64,000 nucleotides of DNA from NCBI GenBank assembly GCA_964586025.1, contig CAZPGF010000001.1, forward strand, positions 29,544 to 93,543, read 5' to 3'. The position numbers and the translations under genes were made by a program. Shown here piece by piece: positions 3,583 to 63,513 of this stretch. The notes below the pieces were generated by a model that was not told the DNA's origin, made no database searches, and saw only the letters and a list, made by a program, of their open reading frames with translations. Origin of the DNA: an uncultured Planctomycetales bacterium. GTDB lineage: Bacteria > Planctomycetota > PLA2 > JAEUHO01. Position 1 is the first letter of the stretch. Every line of letters starts with the position of its first letter.

Positions 3583-3796
3583 CCGGGGAGCGTACCCACC
3601 CGCTCCAGGGATTGGCGGAAGTGTCATGGCCGGGCTCCGCTCCGGGGGCGTCGAGCGCCCGGCGGCGAACGCGAAGGGAAGGGATGCCCTCGGCGGATTG
3701 AGTCGTCAGGGGTCCTGCGGCAGGAGCGCCGGGCCTGATCGCCCCCGATCTGCGAAGCCGTTCCTCCGCAAGGCCCAAGCCCCCGTGTACGACCAC

Positions 3797-11014: not shown

Positions 11015-11267
11015 CGTCCTCTCTCGAAGCCTCCCGGGAGGGGTCCCGAAGTTGCCTCCGGGGCGCCGCGAACCGCCGCGAACGCATGGCATCGCGGCCC
11101 GACGGCGGGTAGCGGGGCATGGTACCCTCCGCGGCTCGCGGACCGACGGGAATTCGGGGGTTTGCGGCCTCGGAGAAGCCATGGTTCAGCGCGTCGCGCG
11201 TCGCGTCGATCGCCCGGTCGATCGCCCCGTCGCGTCCCGTCGGCCAACGCTTCGGCGAGTTCTCGCG

Positions 11268-23255: not shown

Positions 23256-23293
23256 CGGACGGCCCACGCCCGAGCGCCGGATAGCCTGCGGGC

Positions 23294-23980
23294 GTGCCCG
23301 ACGTCTCCCGCGAACTCCTCGATGTGCTTCTCTCCCTCGACGCGCCGCGTCGTCCCTCTCCGGACGAGGCGGCGCGTCTCGTTCGGTACGCCGCGCGGCT
23401 GGTCGAGCATCCGCGTCCGAATCTCACCGCCGCCCGCACCGTGGCGTCGATCATCGAGGTCCTGATCGTTCCGAGCCTCGTCGTGGGGGAGGCATGGCCC
23501 CGCGGACGTCCGGCGCCGCGCGTCGTCCTCGACATCGGCAGCGGCAATGGCTTCCCGGGACTGGCCGCGGCAGCGCTCTGGCCCGGCGCCTTGGTGCACC
23601 TCGTCGAGCGGCGGCAGAGGAAGGCGGCGGCCCTCGCCGAGCATGTCGCGGCATGCGGTTACGGCGAACGGGTTCGGGTCCACGCCGCGGACTCGCGCGA
23701 CCTCCTCGCGCACGAGCCGGGCATGCGCGCCGTTGCGGATCTCGTCGTGCTGCGCGCCGTCGGCCCGCTCTCCGAGTGCAATCGACTCGCGGTGCCCTTC
23801 CTCGCCGGGGGCGGGCGGGTGGTGCACTGGAAGGGACCGGGGATCTCGCGCCACGAGATCGCCGAGGGAAGGCGCGGCGCCGGGCCGCTCGGGCTCGAGG
23901 AGTGCCCGCCGCTCCCGGGCGTCGGCACGCGTTCTCTGTGGGTGTACGAGCGCTCCGGAGGGACCGATGCGACTCGATGA
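23294..23980 (+). CDS. rsmG: 16S rRNA (guanine527-N7)-methyltransferase RsmG (GidB)
   Basis: SAM motif LDIGSGNGFPGL and RsmG-like overall length/order. GTG start. Confidence 0.8.
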   Translation: MPDVSRELLDVLLSLDAPRRPSPDEAARLVRYAARLVEHPRPNLTAARTVASIIEVLIVPSLVVGEAWPRGRPAPRVVLDIGSGNGFPGLAAAALWPGALVHLVERRQRKAAALAEHVAACGYGERVRVHAADSRDLLAHEPGMRAVADLVVLRAVGPLSECNRLAVPFLAGGGRVVHWKGPGISRHEIAEGRRGAGPLGLEECPPLPGVGTRSLWVYERSGGTDATR

Positions 23981-38632: not shown

Positions 38633-40699
38633 CTACGGGGGCGTCGCGAGCAACGCGACCTGCTCCACGAGATGCCGAGCCCACCATGCCATGTCGACCT
38701 GGCCGACGATGCGCACCGAGTCCACGTTCAGGTGACCACCGTCGGTGAACAGCCCGACGCGCGCGGAGGCCACGCCGCTGCCGTCGTCACCGACGGCCTG
38801 TCCCTCGAGCCGCACGCGATCCGACTCGCCCTGCATCACGCCGCGCGTCAGGCGCCCCGAGCGCTCGAACTCGAGGCGCAGCCGGTCGCCGTTGCGCAAC
38901 GACGATTCCGGGGACTCGGCGAACTTCACGAACCCGTGCTGGTCCGCGTCGGCGGCGGCCCAGACGCCTTCGCCGACGAGCCACAGCAGGTGACCGGACT
39001 GCGGGCGCGCGGCGTCACCCTTCTTCAGTTTGAAGCGGGTGTTGTTCAGGTGGAACAGCAGCGCACGGTAGCGCGAACCCTCTTCCACGGCGAGGATGCC
39101 GAAGTCACGCGCGACCTCGGCATGGACGGCGGCCTCGACCCGAACGTCGTCGGCGAACACGAGACGATGGAAGAGGCCGGTGCCGAGACGCATCGTGACG
39201 CTGCCTTCCTTCCACGCCGCCTCGATCGGTTGGTCGGTCGCGAACGGTTGCTCGACCGTGAAGTCCTCCGCGAACTGCGCCCGTTGGTCGAACTCGTAGC
39301 GCACCTCGAGCTTGCCACGCTCGAACTTGGCGTCGCCGTGGAGGATCACGTGCGGGCCGTCCCGCCCCGCGCGCGCCCATCGTTCGGCCGCCTCGAGGGC
39401 GGGCCGATGCAGGCGAGGCAGCGTCGCCTCGCCGTGCAGGTCGAGCAGGCCGCGATAGGCCTTGGCCGCATCCGCGTAGCGAGCGGCGAGCAGGTCGGCA
39501 TGCGCCGTCCGCCACGCCTTGCGCGCGATCGCGTCCGGGTCGCTCGCGTCGGGCGGCGGTCCGGGGTCGCGGCCCTCCGACGCCCCCGGCGACGCAGCCG
39601 GACTCGGCGGCGCATCAGGGGGCGGACGTCGCGAGTCGGGGGCGCGAGGTGCCGTGTCCGGCACCTTCTCGTACAGGTGGCGGCGAGCCGACGCGATCAA
39701 CGGCTCGAGGGTCGGTGCGAACGACGCGGGGAAGCGGTCGAGCGCCTCGACGAGTCGGACGTACGCGTCGCGAGGCGCATGCACCACGAGCGGCGCCACG
39801 TCGCGGAGGAACACATCGAGCGAGACGGCCGCCTCGCGCGCGATGCGCTCGCGCAACGGGGTCGCCTCGCTCGCGTCGATCACTCCGGCGAAGCGATGTT
39901 CGTGACGCGCGATGATGTCGAACGCGCGGGCGAACTGCCCGGCGGCGACCGCGTCGTCGACGGCCGCCCCGATCCGGGCGTGCTCCTCCCGGGCGAGGCG
40001 CTCGTGCAGTTCGTTCCAGCGCGCGCGCAGGGCCGCGACGACGTCGGGCTCGCGGGAGCGCTGGATCGCACCGCGCAGTCGATCGAGTTCGGCCGTGATC
40101 GACGCGATGTCGCTCGCGTGGGTGCGGGCGCGGGCGTCGAGTTCGAGCAAGGATCGCGTCTCCTCGGAGATCTCCGTCGGGCCTCCCGCTCGCGGTTCGG
40201 GAAACTCGCGCGCGAGGACCGAGTCCGCTCGACGCGCCGCCTGCAGATGGTCCACGGCGCGCGTCACCGCGTAGAGAACGATGCCGGCGGCCAATAGGGC
40301 GAGCGGCCAGAGCGGTAGCGCGCGGGCCCGCGGGGGCGGCGGGCGCACCGCCTCGCGCGACGGGGGCCGGCTCGGTGGGGGGGGCGCGGCGGGACCGCTC
40401 GGGCCGCGGAAATACGCCTTCTCGCCGCCGATCCCCAACTCCGCGCCGTCGCCGAGCGGCGTGCCGTCGGCCGGTGCGCCGTTGACGAGGACGCCCTCGG
40501 CACCGGGCAACGCCCGGGCGACGTGCTCGTCCCCCTCGCGAGCGATGACGACCGCCGCCTTCGGGAATGGGGTGGGCGCGGCCTCGAGGCCGCCGCGCGC
40601 CGCGGGGCCGACGAACGTCGCCCCTTCGAGGAGGTCGTACTCGAGCAAGCCGAGCGGCGACGGCAGCAGCAGACGGGCTTCTTCTCGAGCGGCTGCCAC
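38633..40699 (-). CDS. FHA-domain membrane protein (N-terminal FHA, Pro-rich linker, one TM helix, large C-terminal domain)
   Basis: N-terminal ~100 aa FHA-like (ATFVGPAARG...VLVNGAPADGTPLGDGAELGIGGEKAYF). TM helix ALPLWPLALLAAGIVLYAV. Ends 3 nt before hutH. Confidence 0.6.
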   Translation of the reverse strand: MAAAREEARLLLPSPLGLLEYDLLEGATFVGPAARGGLEAAPTPFPKAAVVIAREGDEHVARALPGAEGVLVNGAPADGTPLGDGAELGIGGEKAYFRGPSGPAAPPPPSRPPSREAVRPPPPRARALPLWPLALLAAGIVLYAVTRAVDHLQAARRADSVLAREFPEPRAGGPTEISEETRSLLELDARARTHASDIASITAELDRLRGAIQRSREPDVVAALRARWNELHERLAREEHARIGAAVDDAVAAGQFARAFDIIARHEHRFAGVIDASEATPLRERIAREAAVSLDVFLRDVAPLVVHAPRDAYVRLVEALDRFPASFAPTLEPLIASARRHLYEKVPDTAPRAPDSRRPPPDAPPSPAASPGASEGRDPGPPPDASDPDAIARKAWRTAHADLLAARYADAAKAYRGLLDLHGEATLPRLHRPALEAAERWARAGRDGPHVILHGDAKFERGKLEVRYEFDQRAQFAEDFTVEQPFATDQPIEAAWKEGSVTMRLGTGLFHRLVFADDVRVEAAVHAEVARDFGILAVEEGSRYRALLFHLNNTRFKLKKGDAARPQSGHLLWLVGEGVWAAADADQHGFVKFAESPESSLRNGDRLRLEFERSGRLTRGVMQGESDRVRLEGQAVGDDGSGVASARVGLFTDGGHLNVDSVRIVGQVDMAWWARHLVEQVALLATPP

Positions 40700-40768
40700 A
40701 GGCGCCGATTCTCCTCACAACACGTCACGGGACCGTGACGCCGGGCGGGCGCATCGTACGCTGTCCCC

Positions 40769-40951
40769 ATGTCCGACGAAGCGACGCCCACTGCCCACGG
40801 ATCGGCATCCATCGGCTGGGGCCGCTGGGCGCTCGGGCTGTGGGTCGTCCTGATCGCGCTCGCCGCCGCGGGGGTACTCCTCGGCTGGGACGACCTGCGG
40901 CTGGCCCTCGACGTCGATCGCGAGATCCATCTCGCGAAGCCCGCTTCGTGA
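40769..40951 (+). CDS. very small hydrophobic ORF (questionable)
   Basis: 60 aa with a TM-like LGLWVVLIALAAAGVLLGW; no other support. Confidence 0.15.
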   Translation: MSDEATPTAHGSASIGWGRWALGLWVVLIALAAAGVLLGWDDLRLALDVDREIHLAKPAS

Positions 40952-40995
40952 CCCGTGGCGCTCCCTTCGCGTGGAGGGGTCGGAGGGTCGCGGCC

Positions 40996-41820
40996 ATGCG
41001 CGCGGCGAGCCATGCGGCGGCCTTGTTCGACTGGCTGTTCCCGCCACGTTGCGTCGCCTGCGCCGCTCTCGCCTGGGACGACCCGCACGTCGGCCTGTGC
41101 GCCCCCTGCGCCGAGGGGCTCGGCGAGAACGAGGCGCGCTGCCGTCGCTGCGGGCGGGTCCGACCTCGCGACGACGGGGGGCTCGGGTGCGAGCGGTGCA
41201 TCGGGCCGGACGCCGTGCCCGATGCGCTCGGGCGCCCCGACCTGTCCCGGACGTCCGGAGGCGAGGCCCTGCGCCGGGACGCGATCAGCGGGGTGGTGGC
41301 GACGTGGCGGTATCGGGGCACCGCGGGCGTTCTGGTGCGGCGCATGAAGTTCGCGCGACTGCCGGGGGCGGCCCGACCCCTGGTCGCGGGGATGGCCGCG
41401 GCGACGCGGCGTGCCGGGGTGCCCGGCGATCTGGTCGTTCCCCTGCCCCTGCACGCGACCCGCCGCCTCGCCCGCGGTTTCGACCAGGCCGCCCTGCTCG
41501 CGCGCGGCGTCGCGCGGGAACTCGACCTCGCCTGCCCCGCCTTCGGTCTGCGCCGCGTTCGCGCCACCGCGCCCCAGGCGATGCGCCGGGGGCGCACGCG
41601 CTCCCGTGGACTCGCGGGCAGCTTCGAGGCGGTGCCGGCGGTCGTGCGCGGCCGTTCGGTATTGCTCGTCGACGACGTGCTGACGACGGGCGCGACGGCA
41701 CGCGCGGCGGCACGTGCCCTGCGGCGCGCGGGCGCCGCCTCGGTCCATGTCGTCGTCGCGTGCCGCTCCGAGGCCCGCCATGCGTTGCGGACGACCCGCC
41801 GAAGGAGCCCATCGACGTGA
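40996..41820 (+). CDS. ComF-family protein (Zn-finger plus phosphoribosyltransferase domain)
   Basis: LFPPRCVAC...C zinc finger and PRTase motif VLLVDDVLTTGAT. Confidence 0.7.
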   Translation: MRAASHAAALFDWLFPPRCVACAALAWDDPHVGLCAPCAEGLGENEARCRRCGRVRPRDDGGLGCERCIGPDAVPDALGRPDLSRTSGGEALRRDAISGVVATWRYRGTAGVLVRRMKFARLPGAARPLVAGMAAATRRAGVPGDLVVPLPLHATRRLARGFDQAALLARGVARELDLACPAFGLRRVRATAPQAMRRGRTRSRGLAGSFEAVPAVVRGRSVLLVDDVLTTGATARAAARALRRAGAASVHVVVACRSEARHALRTTRRRSPST

Positions 41821-42152
41821 ACGAGTCCGAACTGCCGGTCGTCCTCGTCGCCGGCCGCTTCGTCGACGAGATCGCCGCGAGCGAGGTCGCGGCCGCGCTG
41901 AACGCCTGGTTTGCGTGGATCCTCGGCGGATCCGCCGACGTTCCGCCGACCGCGTTCGAGGCGTTCGGCGTCGCGACGTCGAACTATGCGTGGCGCCTCG
42001 ACGAAGACGTCGACTGGGAGATGGGGCCGCACGCGCGCGCCGTCGATGCGGAGGTGCGCATCGAACTGGAGACCCACGAGACGCACCTCGCTCTCGCGGG
42101 CCTCCTGCGCCGACTCGGCGCGCGGACGACACGGATCATGCGATCCGAATGA
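41817..42152 (+). CDS. hypothetical protein
   Basis: GTG overlaps the comF stop (GTGA). 111 aa, protein-like. Confidence 0.35.
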   Translation: MNESELPVVLVAGRFVDEIAASEVAAALNAWFAWILGGSADVPPTAFEAFGVATSNYAWRLDEDVDWEMGPHARAVDAEVRIELETHETHLALAGLLRRLGARTTRIMRSE

Positions 42153-42876
42153 CCTCCGCGAGACGGCGCTTCGTCGTCGCGATCGCCTGCGGCGAGCGGT
42201 CCCCGGCGATCCACGATCGACCGAGCCGCTCGGCCGCGATGCACGTCGTGCCGCTGCCGCAGCACGGATCCAACACGACGCCGTCCGGCGGTGCGGACGA
42301 CGCGACGATCCGCTCGAGCAATGCGAGCGGCTTCTGCGTCGGATAGCCGGTTCGCTCCCGTGCGTGGTTGTTGATCGCGGGGATGTCCCACACGTCGGGG
42401 GCCTTCTTGTCGAGCCCGGCCATGCGCCGCGAACGGGCCGGAACGCGGGCTGCCTCGAACCAGTGTCGGGACGGATCGCGGGCGTACCAGAGGAGCGTGT
42501 CGTGCTTGCGCGGCCACCAACGCGGGCCGCTGCCGCCGAGTCCGTACATCCACACGATCTCGTTGAGGAACGCGTCCGCCCCGAACACCTCGTCGAGCGC
42601 GACCTTGACGTAGTGGACGGACCGCCAGTCGAGGTGCACGTAGACGGAGCCGGTCGGCTTCAACCGCGTTGCCAGCGGCGCGAGAAACTCCATCAGCGCG
42701 GCGACGAAGGTACGGATCCCGCCGGGCCAGCGGTCGTCGAACGCCCCGTGGTCGCGCCCGGTGAAGAACGGCGGATCGACGTAGGCGAGGTCGATGCTCT
42801 CCTCGGGAAGCGACGCGACGAGGTCCGCCGCGGCGGACTCGACGAGCCGGCAGAAGCGGCCCGTCGTCCCCGTCAC
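42136..42876 (-). CDS. beta-class DNA methyltransferase (N6-adenine or N4-cytosine), orphan
   Basis: Motif IV DLAYVDPPF precedes motif I LDPCCGSGTT (beta-class order). No restriction-endonuclease candidate adjacent. GTG overlaps the upstream stop (GTGA). Confidence 0.7.
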   Translation of the reverse strand: MTGTTGRFCRLVESAAADLVASLPEESIDLAYVDPPFFTGRDHGAFDDRWPGGIRTFVAALMEFLAPLATRLKPTGSVYVHLDWRSVHYVKVALDEVFGADAFLNEIVWMYGLGGSGPRWWPRKHDTLLWYARDPSRHWFEAARVPARSRRMAGLDKKAPDVWDIPAINNHARERTGYPTQKPLALLERIVASSAPPDGVVLDPCCGSGTTCIAAERLGRSWIAGDRSPQAIATTKRRLAEVIRIA

Positions 42877-45719
42877 TTGCCGAAGATGTCGCGCACCTTG
42901 TCGATCGCGTCCTTCGCGAAGTCGCCACCGATCAGCTTGGACAGATCGATCCGCGGCAGAACGCGGGGCTTGTCGAGTGCACCGGTCGCCTTGAGCGGCA
43001 ACGTGCCGTCGCCGCCGATCTTGGCGAGCAGGCGTCCCTCGAGGGTGAGGTCGAAGTCCATGTCGATCCGGCGATCGAAGCCCGCGAAGCCGCGCCCGCG
43101 GATCGTCGCGTTGCGGCCGGCAAGGTCGATCGAGTCGACGGTCACCCGGCGATCGCCGATGCGCGCACGGGAGTCGAGAGATGTGAACAGGAGCGCGCGA
43201 GCGAGGCCCTTCAACCCATCGCCCGCAGCGGGCACGGCGAGCGCGATCGCGGAGACGGCCTTGCCCATCTCGGCTCCCTGGAACAACGTCGAACTGCGGA
43301 TCTCGCCTTCGGACAGCCGGATCTCCGCGGTACCGGTCAACGTGTCCTCCCGCCTCGGCGACGCCAGCGCGGCGGCCGCCAGGCGGACGCGCGCATCGAG
43401 GCGTCCGCTGACCACGGGCGTCGTCACGTCGGCCGGGATCAACGCGGGGATCGCGTACGCGAGGTAGCGTCCCGCGCCGCGGTGGGTCAGGAGCGGTGAG
43501 GTGTCGAGGCCGTTCACGTCGGCCTCCGCCGAGAACGGCCGCCCGGTCCGGACGAGGTCCACGGCGATGCTCGCGGCGATCGTGCCGCCGTTGGCGCGCG
43601 CGTTCACCTTCGCGACGAGCGGCGTTTCGATGTCGGCCCGTGCGATCTGCGCGGTGACGTCGGCGATGTCCAGGCCCTGCGCGCGCCACGAGCCGAGGCG
43701 TCCGTCGCCGTTCGCCAGGAGGCGCCGCCCACCCTCTCCCGGCACGCCGCGAACCGTGACGCGTGCGTCGATCGCGCCGGAGCCGACGAGATCGTGGTAG
43801 CCCTCGCCGAGGACGCGGCGGAGGGAGGGCGCGAGCGCGCCCGCGTCGCCGCGGAGCGAGAACGTCGCGTCGAGTTCGGGCTCCGGCCCGGTGCGCCACG
43901 TTGCGCCGGTGGCGTCGATCTCGATCCCCCGCGCGACGGCGCGGAACCCGTGCAGGCGTCCGGGTGCCCCATCGGTCGGTAGGCTCGCGTCGAAATCGAT
44001 CGTCACGGCGTCGTGGCGGATGCCCTCGTCGCGCGGATCGTTGCGGTAGAGGACGCTTTCGCCGTGCGCTCTCCCGCTCAGCCTTTGCGCGAGGCGTTCG
44101 ACCTCCGTCGCCATCTCAATGCGCAGCGAGCCGGACAGGTCGTCGGTGGGGGGGAGCACGCCCATCGCGCGCATCCAGGCGGAGGCGGCGCGAAGATCGA
44201 CGGTACCGCCCAACGATCCCGACGCCCGCACGTGATCCGCCGACCGGATGAGGACGAGCGGCGAGTTCCGCATCGCCTCGTCCGTGCGCAGGATCGCCGA
44301 CGTCACGCGCAGCACGTCGAAGCGATCCTCGCCAGACCGACGACGCCAGCGCAGATTCGCCTCGATCGGCGACTCGCGCAGGGCGGGCTCGCCGGAGGGG
44401 CCGGGCGCCAGGGCGAGGCGCTCGACCTTCACCCCGATCGACATCGTCGGCGTGCCGGTCGCGGTCCGTTCGACGCGAGCCTGGGCGAGGATCGCTCCTT
44501 CGCGCACGCGGGCGAGCGTGGGCCACGAGCCGAACAGCGCGGCGAGTCGAGCGAGGTCGGCCCGGGCCCGGACCTGTCCGGTCGTCCAGGGCGCATCGTC
44601 GGCGGGAAGCACGAACGGTTCGGCCAGCGACGCCTCGGCGGTCGATCCGGCCGCGAGCGTCGCCTCGTCGATCCGTGTCGCGCCGTCGGGTGAGACCGTC
44701 CATCGCGCGCGCGCCTCGACGGTCGGCTCGGTGAAGCGAAGCGGCGGTCCATCGGGGCGAGGGCGTACGACGTCCACGCCGCGCAGATCGGCGGTGAGCG
44801 TTCCGGACCGCGCGTCGGGCGCGTCCACACGGAGCGTGAGCGAGTCGATGCGCAATGACCCGCCGTTGGGATCGCGGACGACGACGTCGGTCGCGTCGAT
44901 GCCGCCCTTCGCCGAGGTGGGAGCGGATCCGTCGAGCGACGCCTCGATGTCCACCTTCACGCGACCGCGCTCGATGACGTGGCCGCTGACGCGTTCGACG
45001 AGCGCCGAAAGCCTCGCGAGGTCGATCTCGTCGGACGACGTCAACCGCCCGCGCGTCGATCCGTCGTCGGTCTCCGGCAGGTCGGCGACCAGCGTGACGT
45101 CGTTGCCGCTCACCCCCCCCTTCGGCAGGACCGCGACGACGCGGCCGTCGACCGACGCGCCGATGACGCGCAACGCGACATCGATCGGGCCGATGTCATC
45201 GGCGCCGCCGGAGTCCGGGACGCGCACGCGCGCGTCCTTCACCGTGAGCACCAGGTCGATGCCGCGTCGGTCGTCACGGGCCTCCTCGTCGCGCCCGGGG
45301 AACAGGCCGTCGAGGTTCGATCCGCCGTCCGGTCCGCGCATCAACGTGACTTCGGGGCGCGTCACGCTCGCGACGACGTCGATGTCGCCTCGGAACAATC
45401 GGCCCCATGCGATCGTGGCGTGAGCGTGCGGAACGCGGAGCAGGGGCTCGGCGTAGCCGGGACCGCTCTCGACGATCAGGTCCTCGACCGCGAACCCGCC
45501 CGTCCACCAGCCGGAGAGGGAGCCGATCCGAACCGTCTTCCCCGCGCTCGTCGAGAGCGATCGCGCGATCGCATCCCGGACGAAGCCGAGGCGCAGGGAG
45601 AACGGCGCCGCGGCGACGGGGATGAGCAGCAGCAGGAGGAGTCGAAACAGACGACCACGAAAGGTCCGCCGCTTCTTGGACGGAGCGACGACGTCGCTCG
45701 GGCGGGATGCGAGGCTCAT
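42873..45719 (-). CDS. AsmA/TamB-like large envelope protein (N-terminal TM anchor, long beta-rich body)
   Basis: MSLASRP...RLFRLLLLLLIPVAAAPFS anchor followed by a 900-aa repetitive beta-rich region. ATG overlaps the DUF368 stop (ATGA). Confidence 0.6.
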   Translation of the reverse strand: MSLASRPSDVVAPSKKRRTFRGRLFRLLLLLLIPVAAAPFSLRLGFVRDAIARSLSTSAGKTVRIGSLSGWWTGGFAVEDLIVESGPGYAEPLLRVPHAHATIAWGRLFRGDIDVVASVTRPEVTLMRGPDGGSNLDGLFPGRDEEARDDRRGIDLVLTVKDARVRVPDSGGADDIGPIDVALRVIGASVDGRVVAVLPKGGVSGNDVTLVADLPETDDGSTRGRLTSSDEIDLARLSALVERVSGHVIERGRVKVDIEASLDGSAPTSAKGGIDATDVVVRDPNGGSLRIDSLTLRVDAPDARSGTLTADLRGVDVVRPRPDGPPLRFTEPTVEARARWTVSPDGATRIDEATLAAGSTAEASLAEPFVLPADDAPWTTGQVRARADLARLAALFGSWPTLARVREGAILAQARVERTATGTPTMSIGVKVERLALAPGPSGEPALRESPIEANLRWRRRSGEDRFDVLRVTSAILRTDEAMRNSPLVLIRSADHVRASGSLGGTVDLRAASAWMRAMGVLPPTDDLSGSLRIEMATEVERLAQRLSGRAHGESVLYRNDPRDEGIRHDAVTIDFDASLPTDGAPGRLHGFRAVARGIEIDATGATWRTGPEPELDATFSLRGDAGALAPSLRRVLGEGYHDLVGSGAIDARVTVRGVPGEGGRRLLANGDGRLGSWRAQGLDIADVTAQIARADIETPLVAKVNARANGGTIAASIAVDLVRTGRPFSAEADVNGLDTSPLLTHRGAGRYLAYAIPALIPADVTTPVVSGRLDARVRLAAAALASPRREDTLTGTAEIRLSEGEIRSSTLFQGAEMGKAVSAIALAVPAAGDGLKGLARALLFTSLDSRARIGDRRVTVDSIDLAGRNATIRGRGFAGFDRRIDMDFDLTLEGRLLAKIGGDGTLPLKATGALDKPRVLPRIDLSKLIGGDFAKDAIDKVRDIFGK

Positions 45720-46663
45720 GCGGGGATCTCCTCGGGCTGGGCCGGACCCGCAACGCGCGCCTCGACGAGGCGCAGCACGAACACGCACGCCGCTCCGGCG
45801 AGGGCCGCGACGATCACCCCGGCGATTGGCTCCTTCGGAGCGACGTTGACGATCTCTCCGGCCGCCGCGTCGAACCCGCTCTTCCAGGGCCAGACGGCGC
45901 GAAGGCTGCCCGCCATCATGCCCGTCAATACGGCCATCGTCGCGTCATGACGGGCGGCGAGCAGACGACGCAGGAGCGGCACGAAGAGGGCGATCCCGAG
46001 CACCACGCCGAGGGCGGTCGCTCCGACGGGCAGGAGGTTCCGATCGTGGATCGCGCCGGTCACGGTCGCGTACTGGCCGAGAATCACGAGCATCATCGAA
46101 CCGCTGACGCCCGGAAGGAGCATCACGCAGAGCGCGAGCGCACCCCCGGGCACCAGCATCCACAACTCGGGCGGCCGCGACACGTGAGGCAGACCCGTGA
46201 AGAGGAATGCCCCGACCGCACCGGCGGCGAACAGCGCCACGAGACCCACGCGGCGGTCGCGGATCCGTCGCCAGGGTTCGGGAACGCTGCAGACGACCAG
46301 CCCGAAGAAGAAGCCGAAGCAGAGCGGGGCCGTCTCCGGACGGAGCAGAAGGCCCGGGGCGTCCTTCGGGCCGACGAGCAGGCGGGTCCCGAGCCAGAGT
46401 GCGGCCAGGAGCCCCGCGAGCAGGGGCAGGAGGAATCCGATCGCGGCGACCACGTCCGGCCGCTTCCAACGCCACGGCGGGTGGACCACCGCCGCGAGCG
46501 ACGCGAGGAGGCGATCGTAGATCCCGAGGACGAGGGCGATCGTCCCTCCCGACACGCCCGGGACCGCGTCCGCCGCGCCCATCAGCAGGCCCGAGGTCGC
46601 CACGAGGTGCCAGCGGAGCGGCCGAGGCGGCGAACTCTCGACGGCGGGGGGCGCAGCGGGCAC
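45716..46663 (-). CDS. DUF368-family polytopic membrane protein (PopT-like polyprenyl-phosphate transporter family)
   Basis: Duplicated GVSGGT / GVSGSM motifs and about 8 TM segments. An alternative ATG lies at 46582. Confidence 0.65.
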   Translation of the reverse strand: MPAAPPAVESSPPRPLRWHLVATSGLLMGAADAVPGVSGGTIALVLGIYDRLLASLAAVVHPPWRWKRPDVVAAIGFLLPLLAGLLAALWLGTRLLVGPKDAPGLLLRPETAPLCFGFFFGLVVCSVPEPWRRIRDRRVGLVALFAAGAVGAFLFTGLPHVSRPPELWMLVPGGALALCVMLLPGVSGSMMLVILGQYATVTGAIHDRNLLPVGATALGVVLGIALFVPLLRRLLAARHDATMAVLTGMMAGSLRAVWPWKSGFDAAAGEIVNVAPKEPIAGVIVAALAGAACVFVLRLVEARVAGPAQPEEIPA

Positions 46664-46762
46664 GGGCGTTCTCTACCACGGCGCGGCGAGGCTACACTTC
46701 AGGGCGTGGGACCCGAACGCCGTCGTGCGGAACGACACCCTTGCAACCAACCTGGGCGCCTG

Positions 46763-47035
46763 ATGCTCGCCGGCGGGCGCCAGGTCGAGGTGCGCATCCG
46801 AAACATCGGACTGCTCGGCGCGCTGTGCGAGATCGATGACCTGGAAGAGCCCGTGCTCGAAGGGGAACGCGCGTCGCTCTCGCATCCCGAACTCGTCGGC
46901 GAACAGCCCGGCCCCGCGGACGGCCCGATGGTGCGCACGGCCGGCCAGGTCGTTCGCGTCGAACTCGAACTCGCACCCGAAGGCATCCTTCGCCACGTCG
47001 CCATCCAATTCGATGGTGGCGGCATGCCCGTGTAG
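46763..47035 (+). CDS. small hypothetical protein (possibly PilZ-like beta-barrel)
   Basis: 90 aa, divergent from the DUF368 gene; weak resemblance only. Confidence 0.3.
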   Translation: MLAGGRQVEVRIRNIGLLGALCEIDDLEEPVLEGERASLSHPELVGEQPGPADGPMVRTAGQVVRVELELAPEGILRHVAIQFDGGGMPV

Positions 47036-47211: not shown

Positions 47212-49050
47212 TCAACGCGCCGGAGACGCGGACGGGCGCGCATCGACCAGGCGCAGTTCGGCGGAAAGGGTGCCGCGGAACGAGTTGAGGACCGGTGTGA
47301 CCGCGAGATCGAGCGGCGCGCCCGAGCCGACGAGATCAAACAGGTCGTAACGCCCCCAGCCGATCACGCGCAGGGGGCGATCGGCCGCGCGGATCAGGAA
47401 CGAGAGGTGACGCCCGGTCTGTCCGAGCAACTTCGGCGCCCCGGCGACCGACGTGCGCGGGAACAGGAAGACGGGCTCGGGATTTCCCGGACCGAACGGC
47501 TCCATCCGGCGCATCGCCTTCACCGCGTCGATGGTCCACTCCTCGGGTTTGGACTCGGCGTCGATGAGCAACGGCCCGACGACGGCCCCCGCCTCGCGCT
47601 GCGCGGCGACCGCCGCGCAGAACGACTCGCGCAGCAGCGAGACGCGTTCGGGGCGGACCTCGAAGCCGGCGGCCATCGCGTGGCCGCCGAAACGGTCGAG
47701 CCCGCTCGCGCATGACTCGAGCGCCGCGTGCAGATCGATGCCGCGAGGCGTGCGACCGGAGCCGCGACCGCGGCCGTCATCGAGGGCGACGACGAGAGCC
47801 GGGCGCTGGAACCGATCGACGAGGCGCGCGGCGACGATCCCGATGACGCCCGCGTGCCACCCCTCGCCGGCGACGACGAGTCCGGCCGGATCGCGGTCGC
47901 GCAGCGCGACTTCGGCCTGGGCCAGCGCCTCGGCGAGGACGCGCGACTCGATCTCGCGTCGTTCGCGATTCGCGGCGTCGAGATCGCGGGCGAGTTCACG
48001 GGCGCGCGGCGGGTCGTCGCAAGTCAGGAGTTCGACGACCAGTTCGGGACGCGACAGGCGACCCGCCGCATTCAGACGGGGGGCGAGGCGAAAGGAGACG
48101 TCTTCCGTCGTCAGCGCATTCGCGCCCACTTCGGCGACCTCGCGCAGGGCGGCGAGGCCCGCATGTTCGGTCGCACGGAGCGAGGCCAGCCCGGCCGAGA
48201 CGAGGATGCGGTTCTCGTCTCCCAGCGGCATCTGGTCGGCGATCGTTGCAAGTGCGACGAGGGCCATCGCATCGAGCAAGAACTGCTTGAAGCGACGTCC
48301 GCCCTCGGTGCCGAGGCGTGCGCGACAGCGATCGGCGATCGCCCACGCGAGTTTGAACGCGAGGGCACATCCGCAGAGGTGCGTCGCATCGTCCGGTCCG
48401 CCCGGCGTGAGATGGGGATCGACGATCGCATAGGCCGGTGGCAACGTCGGTCCGGGAAGATGGTGATCGGTGACGATCGCGTCGATTCCGGCGGCCCGGG
48501 CCCGCTCCAGGGCGTCGTGGGCGCGCACGCCGTTGTCGACGGTGATCGCGACGCGTATGCCGGAGGCCGCGAGCCGATCGACCATGGCGATCGACAGGCC
48601 GTACCCGTCCTCGTGTCGGTCGGGGATCGCCCAGAGCGCGTCCACGCCGAGCAGGCGGAAGAACCGCACGAGCAACGCGGTACCGCTCATCCCGTCCACG
48701 TCGTAGTCGCCGCAGACGGCGATCCGCTCGCCCGAGACGATCGCCGCCGCGACGCGCTGCGCCGCGCGATCGATCGCGGGCAGGCCCCGGGGGGGACGAA
48801 GGTGCTCGAGCCGAGGATCGAGGAAGCGTCGTGCGGCGTTCTCGTCGGCATGACCGCGCTGCACGAGGAGTCTTCCGACGGCGACGGGCACGCCGAGTCG
48901 TCGCGCAAACGACACGAGTGCGTCGTCGTCGGGAACCGGCGCGCTGTCCACGAACCGCCAGGCCCGCGCGTCCCGACGAGGTGCGCGCACCGCGGTGTCG
49001 GCGCTCGGGTCGTCGTCCCGCCGGTCGCGCAACGGAAGCAGGTCGATCAC
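47212..49050 (-). CDS. recJ: single-stranded-DNA-specific exonuclease RecJ
   Basis: DHH motifs (CGDYDVDGMSG, ITVDNG, IVTDHH) and DHHA1 GGHAMAAG. Start approximate (GTG 49050). Confidence 0.8.
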   Translation of the reverse strand: MIDLLPLRDRRDDDPSADTAVRAPRRDARAWRFVDSAPVPDDDALVSFARRLGVPVAVGRLLVQRGHADENAARRFLDPRLEHLRPPRGLPAIDRAAQRVAAAIVSGERIAVCGDYDVDGMSGTALLVRFFRLLGVDALWAIPDRHEDGYGLSIAMVDRLAASGIRVAITVDNGVRAHDALERARAAGIDAIVTDHHLPGPTLPPAYAIVDPHLTPGGPDDATHLCGCALAFKLAWAIADRCRARLGTEGGRRFKQFLLDAMALVALATIADQMPLGDENRILVSAGLASLRATEHAGLAALREVAEVGANALTTEDVSFRLAPRLNAAGRLSRPELVVELLTCDDPPRARELARDLDAANRERREIESRVLAEALAQAEVALRDRDPAGLVVAGEGWHAGVIGIVAARLVDRFQRPALVVALDDGRGRGSGRTPRGIDLHAALESCASGLDRFGGHAMAAGFEVRPERVSLLRESFCAAVAAQREAGAVVGPLLIDAESKPEEWTIDAVKAMRRMEPFGPGNPEPVFLFPRTSVAGAPKLLGQTGRHLSFLIRAADRPLRVIGWGRYDLFDLVGSGAPLDLAVTPVLNSFRGTLSAELRLVDARPSASPAR

Positions 49051-49172
49051 GACGCGGGCTCCCTCCCCGGAGCGATTCCCGGCGCGTGTCCGCCGGATCG
49101 CCGCGAGCGTACGACCCTCCTCCGACACCGGAGGGAGTAGAAGGTGGAGGTGGCCGCCCCCGGAGTCTCCGC

Positions 49173-51116
49173 ATGACCACCGCCCGCGATGTACGCCGCG
49201 TGATCCTGGGCACGGCGGGTCACATCGACCACGGCAAGACGACCCTCGTCGAGAGGCTGACCGGAACACCGGGGGACCGCCTGCCCGAGGAGCGGGCGCG
49301 CGGCATGACGATCGATCTCGGCTATGCGGCGTTCCCGCTGGACGACGGGACCGAGATCGGCGTGCTCGACGTGCCGGGACACGAGCACTTCGTCCACACG
49401 ATGGTCGCGGGCGCCGCGGTGATGGATCTCGCCCTGCTCGTCGTCGCCGCCGACGACGGACCGATGCCCCAGACCCTCGAGCATGTCGAGATCCTGGATC
49501 TTCTCGGTGTGACCAGGCTCGTCGTCGCGCTGACGAAGATCGACCTCGTCGGCGCCGAGCGCGTCGCGGAGGTCGTCGCTGCCGTGCGCTCCCTGATCGA
49601 CACGACCGGGATGCGCGGCGCACCGATCGTGCCGGTCTCCGCGACGACCGGCGAGGGGATGGATGCCCTGCGGAGCGCGCTGCGCGCGGCGCTGCCGGAC
49701 GCCGCGGCGCGGGACGACGACGGCCGCGTCTTCCGGATGCCCTTGCTGCGCGCCTTCCACGTCGAGGGACGCGGCGTCGTCGTCACGGGCGTACCGGTCA
49801 GCGGCCGGATCCGCGTCGGCGATCGGGTCGAGGTCCTGCCCTCCGGCCTCGTGGCCCGCGTGCGGGCGATCCGCATCCACGGCTCGGACGCGGGGGAGGC
49901 GCGCGTCGGCCAGCGGACCGCGCTCGCGTTGAGCGACGTGGAGGTAGGCGACCTGAAGCGGGGGATGGTCGTCGCCGAGGCCGGACGGTTGCGCCCGGCC
50001 GCGCGGCTGATCGCGTCGGCGCGGGTACTCGCGACCGCGCGGCGCGGACTTCGACATCGCGACCGCGTGCGCCTCCACATCGGTGCCTCGCGCCTCGTCG
50101 CGCAGGTCCACCTCCCGGCACGCCATCCGCTCGAGCCCGGTTCGAGCGGGGTCGTCGAACTCGTCCCGGAAGGGCCGACGATCGCGCTGCCGGGCGATCG
50201 CTTCGTGCTCCGGGCGGAGAACGCCTCCGCGACGCTCGGCGGCGGCGTGGTGATCGATCTCTCGGAACGCGCCCTTCCCGCGCGGCGCGACGCGCTGCTC
50301 GAGCGACTGGCCGCCCGCGAGGTCGTGCCGCCGCGGTGCGAGCCGATCCTGCTCGGCGCCCTCGACGCGATCGGCGAGGAGGGGGGGGATCTCGACCTGC
50401 TCGTCGCGCGCACCGGGTTTCGACCGGACGTCGTGCGCGAGGCGGCGGCGTCCCTGGTCGCACGCGGCGCGTTGCGGTCGCTCGGGCGCGGGGATCGTTG
50501 GTGCGACGCCGGCTCGTTCGCCCGCGTCGTCGATCGGGTCGAAGAGGCTCTCCGTCGCCTGCACGCGCGCGACGACGCGATCGCGGCGTGGCCGCTCATG
50601 ACCCTTCGCGCCGCGCAACCGCGACTCGACGCGGATGGGTTCGACGCGGCGCTTGCGGACCTGGTCGCTCGCGGGCGGATCGTACGCACGGCGGAAGGGG
50701 ATCTCCATCACGTCGAGCACGTGGTCGAACTGCCCGCGCGCGAGAGGGCCCTGTGCGACGCCGTCTCCGCGCTGCTCGCGCGCGGCGCGGGCCGCCCTCC
50801 CGACGAGGACGAACTGTCCGGCGCGACGGGCGCGAGCCGCCCCGACGTCGAGCGGGCGTTGCGCCTGCTCGCGTCGCGACGACGCGCGTGGCGAACGGCG
50901 GAGCACTGGTTCGACGCGGACTGGGTGGAGACGGCGAAGGAGCGCCTCGCGGCGTTCGCCGCCGAGCACGGCGGATTCACGCCGGCGGACGCACGGACGC
51001 TGCTGGACACGACCCGCAAGTGGCTGATCCCGCTGCTCGAAGCCCTCGACAAGTCCGGCTGGTCGCGGCGACAGGGAGAGCGCCGGGTCGTGCGCGCCAA
51101 CGGTCCGGTGGCGTGA
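49173..51116 (+). CDS. selB: selenocysteine-specific elongation factor SelB
   Basis: GTPase G1 [10 protein letters not shown] and DVPGHEHF motifs, then a long winged-helix C-terminal extension typical of bacterial SelB. Confidence 0.8.
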
Positions 51117-59699: not shown

Positions 59700-59738
59700 G
59701 ATCCCGCGCCGCCGCAGCGGCGGCTCCGGAGACGCGCG

Positions 59739-61739
59739 TTGGCGGCGATTCCCGACGAGATCATCCAGCGCGTCCGCGACGCGCACGACATCGTCGACGT
59801 CGTCGGTCGCACGCTCGAACTGAAGCGCTCGGGCGCTGCGTGGAAAGCGTGCTGTCCCTTCCACGAGGAGAAGACGCCGTCGTTCCAGGTCAATCAGCGC
59901 CTGCAGATCTTCAAGTGCTTCGGCTGCGGCAAGGGCGGCAACGTGTTCCATTGGCTGATGGAGACGCGCGGTCTCACCTTCCCCGAAGCGGTCCGTCAAC
60001 TCGCCGACGAACGCTCGATCGCGGTCCCGCTCGCGCGCGGGGCGGACCCGGGCGTGTCGCGCGACGCGCGCGCCCGACTCGGCGCCGCACTCGACGCCGC
60101 CCACGGCTGGTTTCGTGCGGCGCTCGCCGCCCCGGTCGGAGCCGAGGCGCGCGCGTACCTCGAGCGGCGCGGCTACGACGCGGCGCGGTGCGCCGAGTTC
60201 GGCCTCGGCTTCGCGCCGCCGACTTGGGACGGGCTCGTGCAGGCGCTCGGGCGACGCGGACTCGCCGGAGCCACGCTGGAGGACGCCGGACTCGCGCGAC
60301 GCCGCGAGCGGGGCGGCTTCTACGACGCCTTCCGCCACCGGGTGATGTTCCCGATCCGCGACGCGCAGGGACGACTGGTCACGTTCGCGGGCCGCACGCT
60401 CGATCCCAACGAGAACGCGAAGTACGTGAACGGCCCCGAGACGGCGCTCTTCCGCAAGTCGCACGTGCTCTACGCGCTCGATCGCGCCGCACCGGGAATC
60501 CGACGTCGCGGCGAAGCCCTCGTCATGGAGGGCTACACCGACGTGCTGATGACGCACGCGCACGGCTTCGACCACGCCGTCGCGGCCATGGGCACGGCCT
60601 TCACCGACGCGCAGGCGCGGCTTCTCGGCCGCTTTGCCGACCGCGCGGTGCTGCTGTACGACGGCGACGCCGCCGGTCAGGCGGCCGCCGAGCGGACGCT
60701 CGACGTGCTGCTGCCGATCGGACTGGACGTGCGGATCGCCGTGCTGCCCGCCGGTCGCGACGTGGACGAGATCCTGCTCGAAGAGGGGCCGGGCGCGCTC
60801 GAGGCGATCCTCGCCAACGCTCGCGACTGGTTCGCGCACCGGCTCGCGCGCGAGCGCGAGCGCCACGACCTCTCGACCGTCCGCGGGCGAAGCGCAGCCG
60901 CCGAGTCGTTGCTCGCGACGATCGTCCGGGTCAAGAGCGAGATCGAGCGGACGCTGCGCGTGAAGGAACTCGCCGAGTCGCTCGGCGGCGACCTCGGAGG
61001 CGTCGATGCCGAGGCGGTGCTCCGGCGCGTCGCGGGGGCGTCGCTCGCCCGTCGCGCCGGGGCGTCCGGGGCGTCCGGGGCGTCCGGGGCGTCCGGTCCG
61101 GCGCCGATCCGACGCCGCTCGGCCGCGGCCGTCGACCTCGCCCGGGAGTCCCAGATCGGCTACCTGGCGGGGGCGTTCGCCGACCCCCTGCTCGCCGACG
61201 CGATCCTCCGCTCCGTCGGGCCGGAGGAGTTCCCCAGTCCCGTCCTTCGCCGGATGTACGAGGGGATCCTCGACCTCGCCGAGTCCGGGCGACCCCTGCT
61301 CCGCGAGACCCTCGCGGCCCGGCTCGTCGAGGATGCCGAGGCGCTGGCCGAGTTGGCATCCCTCCCGGACGATCCAACCCTGGCCGAGCGGGTACGTTGC
61401 CAGATTGCGTTCCTGGAGCAGCGGCGGCTCGCCGAGGAGCGCAAGGAACGCCTTCGCGCCCAGGTGCGGGCCGCCGCCGCGGGCCTCGTCACGTCGGCCT
61501 CCGAGGTTCCGCCCGAAGCGGCCCGCCCGGCGGCAGCGAGGGCCGATCCGGGGCAGACTCCCAGCGGGGGCCCCGGTCCGGCGGGGGCGCGGTCGGGCGT
61601 GCCGCCGGTGAGGCCCGAGGGCGAAATCGAGGAATTCCCTTGCGACGAGATCGATCCTTTGCTCGGCCTCCCGGTCTTCGACGGCCCCCCGCCCGAGGAC
61701 CTCGACGACTCCGGCGAGGGCGCGACCCACTCCGGTTGA
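59739..61739 (+). CDS. dnaG: DNA primase
   Basis: Zn ribbon CPFHEEKTPSF...CFGCGKGG and TOPRIM EGYTDV...DGD motifs. Start is the track TTG (MAAIPDEI). Confidence 0.85.
   Translation: MAAIPDEIIQRVRDAHDIVDVVGRTLELKRSGAAWKACCPFHEEKTPSFQVNQRLQIFKCFGCGKGGNVFHWLMETRGLTFPEAVRQLADERSIAVPLARGADPGVSRDARARLGAALDAAHGWFRAALAAPVGAEARAYLERRGYDAARCAEFGLGFAPPTWDGLVQALGRRGLAGATLEDAGLARRRERGGFYDAFRHRVMFPIRDAQGRLVTFAGRTLDPNENAKYVNGPETALFRKSHVLYALDRAAPGIRRRGEALVMEGYTDVLMTHAHGFDHAVAAMGTAFTDAQARLLGRFADRAVLLYDGDAAGQAAAERTLDVLLPIGLDVRIAVLPAGRDVDEILLEEGPGALEAILANARDWFAHRLARERERHDLSTVRGRSAAAESLLATIVRVKSEIERTLRVKELAESLGGDLGGVDAEAVLRRVAGASLARRAGASGASGASGASGPAPIRRRSAAAVDLARESQIGYLAGAFADPLLADAILRSVGPEEFPSPVLRRMYEGILDLAESGRPLLRETLAARLVEDAEALAELASLPDDPTLAERVRCQIAFLEQRRLAEERKERLRAQVRAAAAGLVTSASEVPPEAARPAAARADPGQTPSGGPGPAGARSGVPPVRPEGEIEEFPCDEIDPLLGLPVFDGPPPEDLDDSGEGATHSG
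61059..61094 (+). repeat. 9-nt tandem repeat (GGGGCGTCC)x4 encoding (Gly-Ala-Ser)4 in the dnaG linker
   Basis: Direct perfect tandem copies seen in sequence, in-frame. Confidence 0.6.
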
Positions 61740-61794
61740 AGCAAGGCACGGGCGTCTCGCCGCGCCATGATGCGGCGCCTCGGGAGCACGACGC

Positions 61795-63513
61795 ATGACG
61801 CGACGAGTGGATCCGTTCGTTCCGCCCAGCCCGCTCGACGAGACCGAGCCCGAGATCCTCGCGCTGATCGAAACGGGAAAGAAGCGCGGCTACCTCACCT
61901 ACGAGGAACTGAACACCGCCGAGCCGGAGAAGGCGCCCTGCCCGGCGATGATGGACCGGATCCTCCAGACGATCGATCTCGCTCAGATCGAGGTTCTCGA
62001 CGGCGGCGACGCGGCCAAGCGCGAGCGCGAGGCGGCGATCGCGCGCGGCGAGACCCCGCCCGTCGAGCCGCCGACTCCGGGCCGCCGGGTTTCGAGGGCC
62101 TCGTCCACGGAGAGCGTGCTCGACCAGCCGATCTCGACGGAGAAGATCGACGATCCCGTCCGCATGTACCTCACGCAGATGGGCGAGATCCCGCTCCTCA
62201 CCCGCGACGAGGAGATCAGCCTCTCGAAGAAGATCGAGATCACCCGCAAGCGTTATCGCCACGCCGTCCTGGAGAGCGGCGCGGGCATCGCCGCGGCGAT
62301 CGGCATCCTTCAACAGGTCGCACGCGGGGACATCGCGTTCGATCGCACGCTGCGGATCGGTACCGCCGACCCGGTGGACAAAGATGATCTCCAGCGGCGC
62401 ATGCCGTTCAATCTGCGCACGATGGAGAAGATCCTCGCCGACCTGCGCGAGGACATGGCGACGCTCGTCTTCGGCAATCCGAGTGAGCGCACCGCCGACC
62501 ACCTTCGCACCCGCGTCCGTACGCGCCGCCTCCGCTGCCTGAAGCTGATGGAGGAGATCGCGATCCAGACGAAGAAGATCCGCCCGATCCACGAGGAGTG
62601 CTACGAGCGCGCCGAAGAGATCGATGACCTTCGGCGCCGCATCCGCGATCTCAAGCGCCGCAAGGGCGAGCAGATCGAGATCGACGAGTGCGAGGAGCGC
62701 CTCAAGGACATCGAGGTGGAGGTCCTCGAGTCGCCCGACGCGTTCGTGAAGCGCTGCGCGGAGATCCGCCATCGATTCGCGGAGTACGAGGAGGCCAAGC
62801 GCAAGCTGTCCAGCGGCAACCTGCGGCTCGTCGTGTCGATCGCGAAGAAGTACCGCAACCGCGGCCTGACTTTCCTCGATCTGATCCAGGAGGGCAACAC
62901 CGGGCTGATGAAGGCGGTCGAGAAGTACGAGTACCGCCGCGGCTACAAGTTCAGCACGTACGCGACGTGGTGGATCCGACAGGCCATCACGCGTTCGATC
63001 GCCGATCAGGCGCGCACCATCCGCATCCCAGTGCACATGATCGAGACGATGAGCAAGATCCGCAACGTCACCAAGAAGCTGATCCAGCGCCTCGGACGCG
63101 AACCCACCACCGAGGAGATCGCGCAGGCGAGCGGCATCAGCGTCGAAGAGACGAAGCGGGTGATGAAGATCAGCAAACACCCGATCAGCCTCGATCGCCC
63201 GATCGGGGACAGCGAAGACAGCTACTTCGGCGACTTCATCGAGGACGAACAGGCCGAGAGCCCCGTCAACGCCGCGACCCACGAGATGCTGAAGGACAAG
63301 ATCGACCAGGTCCTTCAGACGCTGACGTTCCGCGAGCGCGAGATCATCAAGTTGCGCTACGGCATCGGCGACGGCTACACGTACACCCTCGAAGAGGTCG
63401 GCAAGATCTTCAAGGTCACGCGCGAACGCGTTCGCCAGATCGAGGCGAAGGCGGTGCGCAAGTTGCAGCACCCGGTGCGAGCCCGCAAACTCGAAGGATT
63501 CCTCGACCAATGA
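61795..63513 (+). CDS. rpoD: RNA polymerase sigma-70 factor RpoD
   Basis: Regions 1.2 through 4 present, including [19 protein letters not shown] and [19 protein letters not shown]. Confidence 0.9.

Follow-up and report, generated by a model that had tools for sequence, protein, structure and literature searches.

A Solitary Beta-Class DNA Methyltransferase, Probably Resident in Its Lineage, Encoded Behind Two Envelope Genes in an Uncultured Planctomycetota Bacterium

RESULTS

A methyltransferase gene forms the end of a three-gene unit

A 64,000-nucleotide stretch of DNA from an uncultured Planctomycetales bacterium (GenBank assembly GCA_964586025.1, contig CAZPGF010000001.1), hereafter the window, carries a gene for a DNA methyltransferase (MTase) that follows two genes with predicted cell envelope functions. 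The MTase gene, its two upstream neighbors, and the junctions between them are listed here by window position; lengths are given in amino acids (aa), and SAM is S-adenosylmethionine.

45716-46663, minus strand: DUF368/VCA0040-like (PopT-type) polyprenyl-phosphate transporter gene; 315 aa, GTG start, TGA stop; opens the three-gene unit
45716-45719, minus strand: ATGA junction, DUF368 stop and AsmA-like start; sequence CCCGCATGAGCC (CCCGC-ATGA-GCC)
42873-45719, minus strand: AsmA-clan (DUF748/AsmA/YhdP-like) envelope gene; 948 aa, ATG start, TGA stop; middle gene
42873-42876, minus strand: GTGA junction, AsmA-like stop and MTase start; sequence GGCAAGTGACGGGG (GGCAA-GTGA-CGG)
42136-42876, minus strand: beta-class methyltransferase gene (PF01555); 246 aa, GTG start, TGA stop; last gene of the unit
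42766-42777, minus strand: motif IV, DPPF, catalytic; MTase aa 34-37
42244-42270, minus strand: motif I, DPCCGSGTT, SAM binding; MTase aa 203-211

Both overlaps had been described in an initial annotation of this DNA, and direct reading of the sequence at the two junctions confirmed them. Within codons 1 to 40 of the MTase gene there is a single start-like codon, the GTG at 42876. A database protein, P0001, is identical to the MTase over 246 aa with 100% query coverage, and thus has the same start. All three open reading frames (ORFs) of the unit have coding-type composition, with a G+C content of 0.88 to 0.90 at third codon positions (GC3) and of 0.53 to 0.55 at second codon positions (GC2). 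The GC3 of the MTase gene is 0.90, similar to that of its neighbors. G+C content is ~72% throughout the window, and the locus shows no compositional break.

The predicted MTase matches the Pfam family N6_N4_Mtase (PF01555) with 128.9 bits against a cut-off of 26.7, and residues 28 to 236 align with model positions 1 to 220 of 221. Its best PADLOC model is MTase_II (6.7e-59). As the initial annotation had pointed out, motif IV lies ahead of motif I, which is the circularly permuted order of beta-class enzymes. Across 26 homologs, D34, P35, P36, and F37 of motif IV and D203, G207, G209, and T210 of motif I are invariant. The window MTase has every residue that is invariant in this set, among them DPPF, YPTQKP, and the motif I GxG. 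It looks catalytically competent. The presence of DPPF rather than SPPF/Y in motif IV favors N6-adenine as the target, and the MTase is probably N6-adenine specific.

A search of Protein Data Bank (PDB) sequences identified M.BceJIV (E=2e-30), CcrM (6.8e-22), and M.RsrI (1e-18) as the nearest enzymes with solved structures. An AlphaFold2 model built on the 26 homologs had a pLDDT of 85.8. In Foldseek its top match, over the full length, was 8urk (M.BceJIV; TM 0.80, 30% identity), followed by M.RsrI (TM 0.76), CcrM (TM 0.72-0.74), MboIIA, and then N4-cytosine enzymes. The top matches were all DNA m6A or m4C methylases (N6-methyladenine or N4-methylcytosine). By sequence and by modeled fold, the window MTase is thus assigned to the beta-class DNA amino-methyltransferases.

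The two upstream genes were assigned as follows. The DUF368 protein matches Pfam PF04018 with 198.8 bits (cut-off, 26). It scores 187.6 and 92.5 bits with NCBIfam polyprenyl-phosphate transporter models, under the equivalog cut-off of 400, so its membership is given at the family level only. Proteins of the DUF368/PopT family function as polyprenyl-phosphate transporters (PMC9876793). The AsmA-like protein has three Pfam matches over residues 16 to 298, all below the respective cut-offs: DUF748 (35 bits, E=5.9e-9, against 50), AsmA (18 against 29.8), and YhdP (16 against 46). Its orthologs match the same families at E<=1e-3, with DUF748 found in all six (best 6.5e-17) and AsmA and YhdP in five of six each. 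A hydrophobic stretch, LFRLLLLLLIPVAAAPF, is visible in the translation close to the N-terminus. Searching PDB sequences with a profile of this protein gave no meaningful match.

Position and rate of evolution indicate a resident gene

Related loci were compared with the window and are designated by L numbers. Those in which the MTase, its usual neighbors, or both could be followed are listed below with the identity of their MTase to that of the window, the gene order, and the arrangement at the MTase start.

L001: MTase 81%; SelB, RecJ, PilZ, DUF368, AsmA, MTase, ComF, ~690-aa protein, HAL, HisRS; 4-bp overlap
L003: MTase 74%; gene order as in L001; 4-bp overlap
L006: MTase 65%; gene order as in L001; 49-bp gap before MTase
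L088: MTase 65%; gene order as in L001; 31-bp gap before MTase
L090: MTase 59%; gene order as in L001; 261-bp gap before MTase
L089: MTase 63%; DUF368 then MTase directly, no AsmA gene; GTGA overlap with DUF368 stop
L007: MTase 59%; MTase convergent on RecJ, beside SelB, neither DUF368 nor AsmA; separate

The ATGA junction between the DUF368 and AsmA-like genes recurs in L001 and L003. Overlapping AsmA/MTase codons are found only in the window and in these two loci, as GTGA in L001 and as ATGA in L003. DUF368 orthologs occupy the same position in L001, L003, L006, L089, and L093. The last of these was the sole locus retrieved when metagenome contigs were searched with the AsmA-like alignment, and as a sample of one it serves only as a counter-example: it has PilZ, DUF368, and AsmA genes with an ORF for a secreted TPR-like protein at the place of the MTase gene. 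A tblastn comparison of 80 further genome-scan loci, which are among the matches listed, carry MTases of at most 56% identity, and do not include the closest relatives, revealed no other case of linkage between the MTase and the window neighbors. The initial annotation had described the MTase as hard-wired to outer-membrane biogenesis and polyprenyl-phosphate transport genes. This description does not hold across the loci compared, given the gaps in L006, L088, and L090, the missing AsmA gene in L089, the MTase without either partner in L007, and both partners without the MTase in L093.

At least eight lineages keep the MTase in the SelB-RecJ...HAL-HisRS neighborhood (L007 only partly), and the MTases of the syntenic loci form one clade in a neighbor-joining tree, which carries no support values. 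The MTase also evolves slowly. Its identities to L001, L003, L006, and L007 are 81, 74, 65, and 59%, and those of RecJ are 74, 66, 56, and 47%. In the same comparison the DUF368 identities are 66, 66, and 53%, and the HisRS identities are 75 and 73%. The AsmA-like protein, with 52, 45, and 30% identity to L001, L003, and L006, is the fastest evolving of the unit. The MTase has a nonsynonymous divergence (dN) from L001 of 0.15, compared with 0.16 in HAL, 0.20 in HisRS, 0.29 in DUF368, and 0.46 in AsmA. Synonymous divergence (dS) is saturated or biased (0.6-1.0 in a 72% GC genome), which makes dN/dS ratios unreliable, and only dN relative to neighboring genes was used. Because its syntenic homologs form one clade, its dN is as low as that of HAL and HisRS, and its GC3 is neighbor-like, the MTase gene behaves like a resident gene on which purifying selection acts and appears to be neither a recent insertion nor a decaying remnant. 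Whether the gene is conserved in its clade, a question raised by the initial annotation, can therefore be answered in part: its fixed place in at least eight lineages and its slow evolution speak for conservation, and its absence from the related DUF368-AsmA locus L093 speaks against universal presence.

A second group of loci from Phycisphaerales (L010, L013, L014, L016, L017, L018, L021, and L091) encodes an MTase homolog of 46-54% identity that is monophyletic in the neighbor-joining tree. This homolog lies directly downstream of a UDP-glucose/GDP-mannose dehydrogenase (UGDH) gene, with a polyprenyl synthase gene upstream and an asparagine synthase gene downstream. The neighborhood differs from that of the window but is equally stable. 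At the UGDH/MTase junction, L091 (6658-8729) has a GTGA overlap and the others have gaps of ~35-540 bp by tblastn coordinates. The placement behind an envelope-sugar gene is independent of the window-type placement.

The flanking genes encode no recognizable nuclease

The genes next to the unit are as follows.

46706-47035, plus strand: PilZ-domain gene, 109 aa; divergent from DUF368 with a 42-bp spacer; 5' boundary of the unit
41817-42152, plus strand: 111-aa gene, convergent with MTase; GTG start within a GTGA overlap with the ComF stop, final 17 bp shared with the 3' end of the MTase gene
40567-41820, plus strand: ComF-family phosphoribosyltransferase with double zinc ribbon; maximal ORF, true start probably after ~40950
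40769-40951: small conserved gene for a hydrophobic protein
38633-40699, minus strand: gene for a 688-aa protein; no Pfam, NCBIfam, or PADLOC match

The unit consists of exactly three genes because the PilZ gene upstream is divergent and the 111-aa gene downstream is convergent. The junction of ComF with the 111-aa gene in the window is also a GTGA overlap. By a hand count of gene tables, 4-bp overlaps occur in ~5 of ~50 other same-strand neighbor pairs in the related loci. Such overlaps are common in these genomes, so that a 4-bp overlap alone is weak evidence of a functional tie. Scans of positions 41.5 to 47.3 kb for sigma-70 promoters and intrinsic terminators gave nothing above the expectation from shuffled sequence. 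No tRNA (tRNA-Sec included) or Rfam element was detected anywhere in the 64-kb window.

Between 35.7 and 54.2 kb, which is ~10 kb on either side of the MTase, the neighbors are HisRS, HAL (histidine ammonia-lyase), the 688-aa protein, the small hydrophobic protein, ComF, the 111-aa protein, the AsmA-like protein, DUF368, PilZ, RecJ, SelB, a probable secreted protein of 539 aa, and a Ser/Thr kinase. None of the genes in this interval matched a nuclease or defense model in Pfam, and PADLOC gave no nuclease or defense match for the six nearest genes (38.6-47.0 kb). The initial annotation had reported no endonuclease partner, and this wider search agrees with it. The Mrr-type domain that is present in some relatives of the MTase (see below) left no trace in the 64-kb window (tblastn E>1). 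Because four MTase neighbors lack any family assignment, the case against a nearby nuclease is built on missing matches and on synteny with housekeeping genes. We considered whether the 688-aa and 111-aa proteins might be unrecognized nucleases and did not retain this reading, as neither has a Pfam or PADLOC match and both are syntenic with housekeeping genes.

The 111-aa gene has orthologs of 55-63% identity at the same position in L003, L006, L088, and L090 (tblastn). Features of the 688-aa protein are a hydrophobic stretch, extended regions rich in Pro and Ala, and a C-terminal half that is conserved. Its gene is always upstream of HAL and HisRS in the related loci; for L089, the gene call is limited to 345 aa that match the C-terminal half. 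The ComF protein matches the Pfam families Pribosyltran (4.4e-12) and DZR_2 (3.7e-9) and falls under the cut-off of the NCBIfam GntX/ComF models. PilZ, a domain of the c-di-GMP receptor type, was identified with 28.1 bits (Pfam cut-off, 22.5). PilZ orthologs are present in L001, L003, L006, L089, and L093, and all five keep the divergent PilZ/DUF368 pair. This pairing seems to predate the link to the methylase and to be the more stable of the two.

The SelB selenocysteine elongation factor gene (48831-51116, plus strand) is divergent from RecJ. Elsewhere the window is core chromosome, with genes for a ParA-like ATPase (2812-3705, minus strand), GyrA (8426-11185, minus strand), RsmG (GidB; 23285-23980, plus strand), and DnaG-RpoD (59700-63513, plus strand), a set that is often near the chromosomal origin. 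Cumulative GC skew rises steadily along the window with no turning point. A very long ORF (1638 aa; 16287-21203, plus strand) shows a composition typical of coding sequence and matched no Pfam family at E<=0.001.

DISCUSSION

We interpret the window MTase as a solitary beta-class DNA methylase, probably m6A-forming, that is vertically inherited and occupies the promoter-distal position of a three-gene operon, where it is plausibly translated by termination-reinitiation at the GTGA. We place the probability of this interpretation at roughly 0.7. Of its elements, the solitary state of the MTase and its maintenance by selection are well supported by the sequence comparisons; the gene would be a resident of a Planctomycetota (Phycisphaerae-like) lineage and not part of a restriction-modification (R-M) system. 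The unit would be transcribed in the order DUF368, AsmA-like, and MTase, from the divergent PilZ gene to the overlap with the 111-aa gene. With its GTG start overlapping the AsmA stop and no promoter-like signal of its own seen, the MTase would probably be produced by read-through transcription and termination-reinitiation, and its expression would be low and steady. Since the gene is conserved and no nuclease was found near it, the enzyme may methylate a short motif genome-wide for epigenetic, replication, or repair use, as is the case with Dam, CcrM, and M.BceJIV. The partnership with the envelope genes would be positional, a long-lived but breakable gene order and not a functional coupling.

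Several observations weigh against this interpretation. Co-transcription and translational coupling are inferred from gene geometry only, and the promoter and terminator scans were uninformative. The window spans only 64 kb, and a nuclease could be encoded elsewhere in the genome. Five homologs of 53-56% identity (P0066, P0067, P0070, P0087, and P0090) are single polypeptides with a C-terminal Mrr_cat domain, above the Pfam threshold, and look like a subfamily of MTase-nuclease fusions; an Mrr_cat domain also follows the MTase in L026, L035, L036, and L068. Nine more distant loci (28-40% identity) have a ~900-aa ResIII helicase-nuclease beside the MTase. A metagenome-assembled genome labeled as Chloroflexi carries a 59%-identical MTase in an unrelated context (L094:8001-9925), which suggests transfer between phyla or mis-binning. 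In addition, the co-directional order DUF368-(AsmA)-MTase persists to ~30% AsmA identity, and the second Phycisphaerales group again has its MTase behind an envelope-sugar gene (UDP-glucose dehydrogenase); both could hint at a real link with the envelope.

Further details of these relatives are as follows. Mrr_cat is a PD-(D/E)xK nuclease domain, and in L092 (703-1998) a small HNH gene is next. The nine Res-linked loci (L022, L030, L042, L062, L079, L082, L083, L084, and L086; e.g., L083, 1874-4783) come from several phyla. The ~900-aa neighbor combines a ResIII helicase domain with a weak TnsA-like endonuclease signal at its C-terminus and looks like a restriction partner. In L094, another PF01555 methylase gene (314 aa) comes after that of the MTase, and pairs of HEPN and nucleotidyltransferase genes are also present in the neighborhood. 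The subfamily as a whole spans restriction-linked and solitary members and appears to have moved between phyla, with the window clade as one of its solitary, domesticated branches.

A leftover of an R-M system is a rather unlikely source of the gene. The partner nuclease would have been lost or would lie elsewhere in the genome, and the MTase would have no regulatory role or would serve a distant nuclease. The best PADLOC models of the MTase are type II MTases, and the Mrr_cat-linked and Res-linked relatives described above point in the same direction. A decaying remnant, however, would not be expected to evolve as slowly as HisRS and HAL, to keep every family-invariant residue, or to remain at one chromosomal position in at least eight lineages. 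In the neighbor-joining tree, which is without support values, relatives linked to nucleases are placed outside the clade formed by the syntenic MTases, and no nuclease remnant was detected in the window.

Functional coupling to the envelope genes is, in our judgment, quite unlikely. For example, a methylase with a cell-cycle or epigenetic role would have its dosage locked to lipid-carrier recycling and outer-membrane lipid transport, or its methylation state would regulate the envelope genes. The gene order is co-directional in seven lineages, down to 59% MTase identity. In L089, which is without the AsmA gene, the MTase start overlaps the DUF368 stop directly, and the separate Phycisphaerales homolog that follows UDP-glucose dehydrogenase, with a polyprenyl synthase nearby, has the same GTGA overlap in L091. 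The MTase start overlaps the stop codons of three upstream genes in different lineages (AsmA-like, DUF368, and UGDH), all of them envelope-related, and because of this we leave a small probability on real coupling. In a stronger version, there would be two Phycisphaerae-wide solitary m6A lineages, each distal in an envelope operon (DUF368-AsmA or UGDH), and the MTase would be a Dam/CcrM-like regulator of epigenetic or cell-cycle type, deliberately coupled to envelope growth at the level of translation; we consider this a long shot. To our knowledge, Planctomycetota divide without FtsZ. No mechanism is known by which PopT or AsmA proteins would be linked to a DNA MTase.

The evidence from gene order argues against a mechanistic tie. 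The arrangement is broken in 3 of 10 lineages (L089, L007, and L093), with a secreted TPR-like ORF at the MTase position in L093 and the MTase beside RecJ/SelB in L007. The overlaps become gaps of 31-261 bp in three more lineages (L006, L088, and L090), and most UGDH-linked loci likewise have gaps. Moreover, 4-bp overlaps are frequent in these genomes, and mixed-function operons that include orphan methylases are well known (PMC4981707, PMC11380664). For these reasons we regard the tie to the envelope genes as one of gene order. The initial annotation had called the arrangement unusual, but E. coli dam beside damX (PMC4981707) and M.BceJIV in the trp operon (PMC11380664) are precedents for it.

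A non-DNA enzyme is very improbable. The PF01555 fold would in this case have been recruited to modify amino groups of RNA, of protein, or of an envelope precursor, which would explain the place in an envelope operon. Related Rossmann-fold methyltransferases such as PrmC/HemK do use (D/N)PP(Y/F) chemistry on non-DNA amino groups, but apart from this the recurrent envelope-gene context is all that favors it. Against it, DNA methylases are the only matches of the full-length sequence and of the fold, the wedge loop, the flipped-base His-Asp pocket, and the major-groove Arg of M.BceJIV are kept, and close homologs are fused to restriction-type nucleases, which is sensible only for a DNA enzyme.

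The slow evolution and conservation of the MTase are consistent with a solitary methylase whose function, possibly epigenetic, is under selection. Dam, CcrM, CamA, and M.BceJIV are examples of clade-conserved solitary methylases, enzymes that have repeatedly been found to control replication, repair, cell cycle, or gene expression. The cell biology of Phycisphaerae-type Planctomycetota is unusual and hard to study, and in the literature searched we found no description of a clade-conserved solitary methylase from this group. The window MTase is a reasonable candidate for a first epigenetic regulator in Phycisphaerae. Enrichment of its target motif between genes or close to the origin would open up epigenetic regulation in Planctomycetota; without such enrichment, the MTase would be one more orphan methylase carried in a housekeeping operon.

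Comparison with known systems

M.BceJIV of Burkholderia cenocepacia is an orphan beta-class m6A MTase that recognizes GTWWAC, is conserved in its genus, and is encoded inside the trp operon (PMC11380664). It is the best match of the window MTase by both sequence and fold. The two are similar in size (246 aa for the window MTase and 283 aa for the longer of two crystallized M.BceJIV constructs), and neither has extra domains. Both are orphans embedded in housekeeping operons, and both are conserved, M.BceJIV in its genus and the window MTase in the lineages compared. Residue roles reported for M.BceJIV (PDB 8URK and 9C3S-U; PMC11380664) were set against the PDB sequence alignment. The base-flipping wedge loop MGG corresponds to LGG in the window MTase, which also keeps the His-Asp pair in which the second flipped base is held, as well as an equivalent of the major-groove Arg180. 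Differences are nevertheless substantial. Identity is only ~30%, and phylum and operon are not the same. The minor-groove readers Arg203, His205, and Gln207 are replaced by Ala, Asn, and His, and the stretch of the target recognition domain (TRD) with Trp188 is deleted. Of the base readers of M.BceJIV (Arg180, Leu182/Phe183, Trp188, Arg203, His205, and Gln207), the window MTase keeps just one, the equivalent of Arg180. Because the reading residues differ, we rejected a transfer of the GTWWAC specificity to the window MTase, whose target motif is not predictable.

CcrM of Caulobacter (PDB 6PBD; GANTC) shares with the window MTase the beta-class motif order, DPP(Y/F), a solitary state, and conservation, which for the window MTase is seen in the lineages compared. 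The initial annotation had called the motif order CcrM-like. The comparison stands for a solitary beta-class enzyme but not for family membership: the score with the NCBIfam model NF050803 is 82.5 bits against an equivalog cut-off of 830, so that a CcrM assignment was rejected, and the nearest solved relative is M.BceJIV. The window MTase matches model positions 6 to 252 of 350 and is without the ~100-residue C-terminal domain, which in CcrM binds DNA non-specifically. CcrM is cell-cycle regulated. The top NCBIfam match is YhdJ of E. coli (PRK11524, E=1.4e-26), which is likewise a small solitary beta-class adenine MTase. With 93.3 bits against a cut-off of 292, assignment as a YhdJ equivalog was also rejected.

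The MTase-Mrr_cat fusions and the Res-linked MTases belong to the same PF01555 subfamily as the window MTase and have the conserved middle region in common with it; for the fusions, the 53-56% identity extends across the whole MTase domain. They differ in that the window MTase stops at residue 246, with no nuclease domain fused to it or encoded nearby.

For the arrangement of genes, the best analogy is provided by E. coli dam, which lies in the mixed operon aroBK-damX-dam-rpe-gph-trpS beside the gene for the divisome/envelope protein DamX and has its own promoters, located within damX (PMC4981707). Dam is an alpha-class enzyme (PF02086) with a motif order that is not homologous, and its internal promoters have no counterpart seen at the window locus. 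In both cases, a solitary adenine methylase (probably so in the window) is carried as a passenger directly downstream of an envelope or divisome gene.

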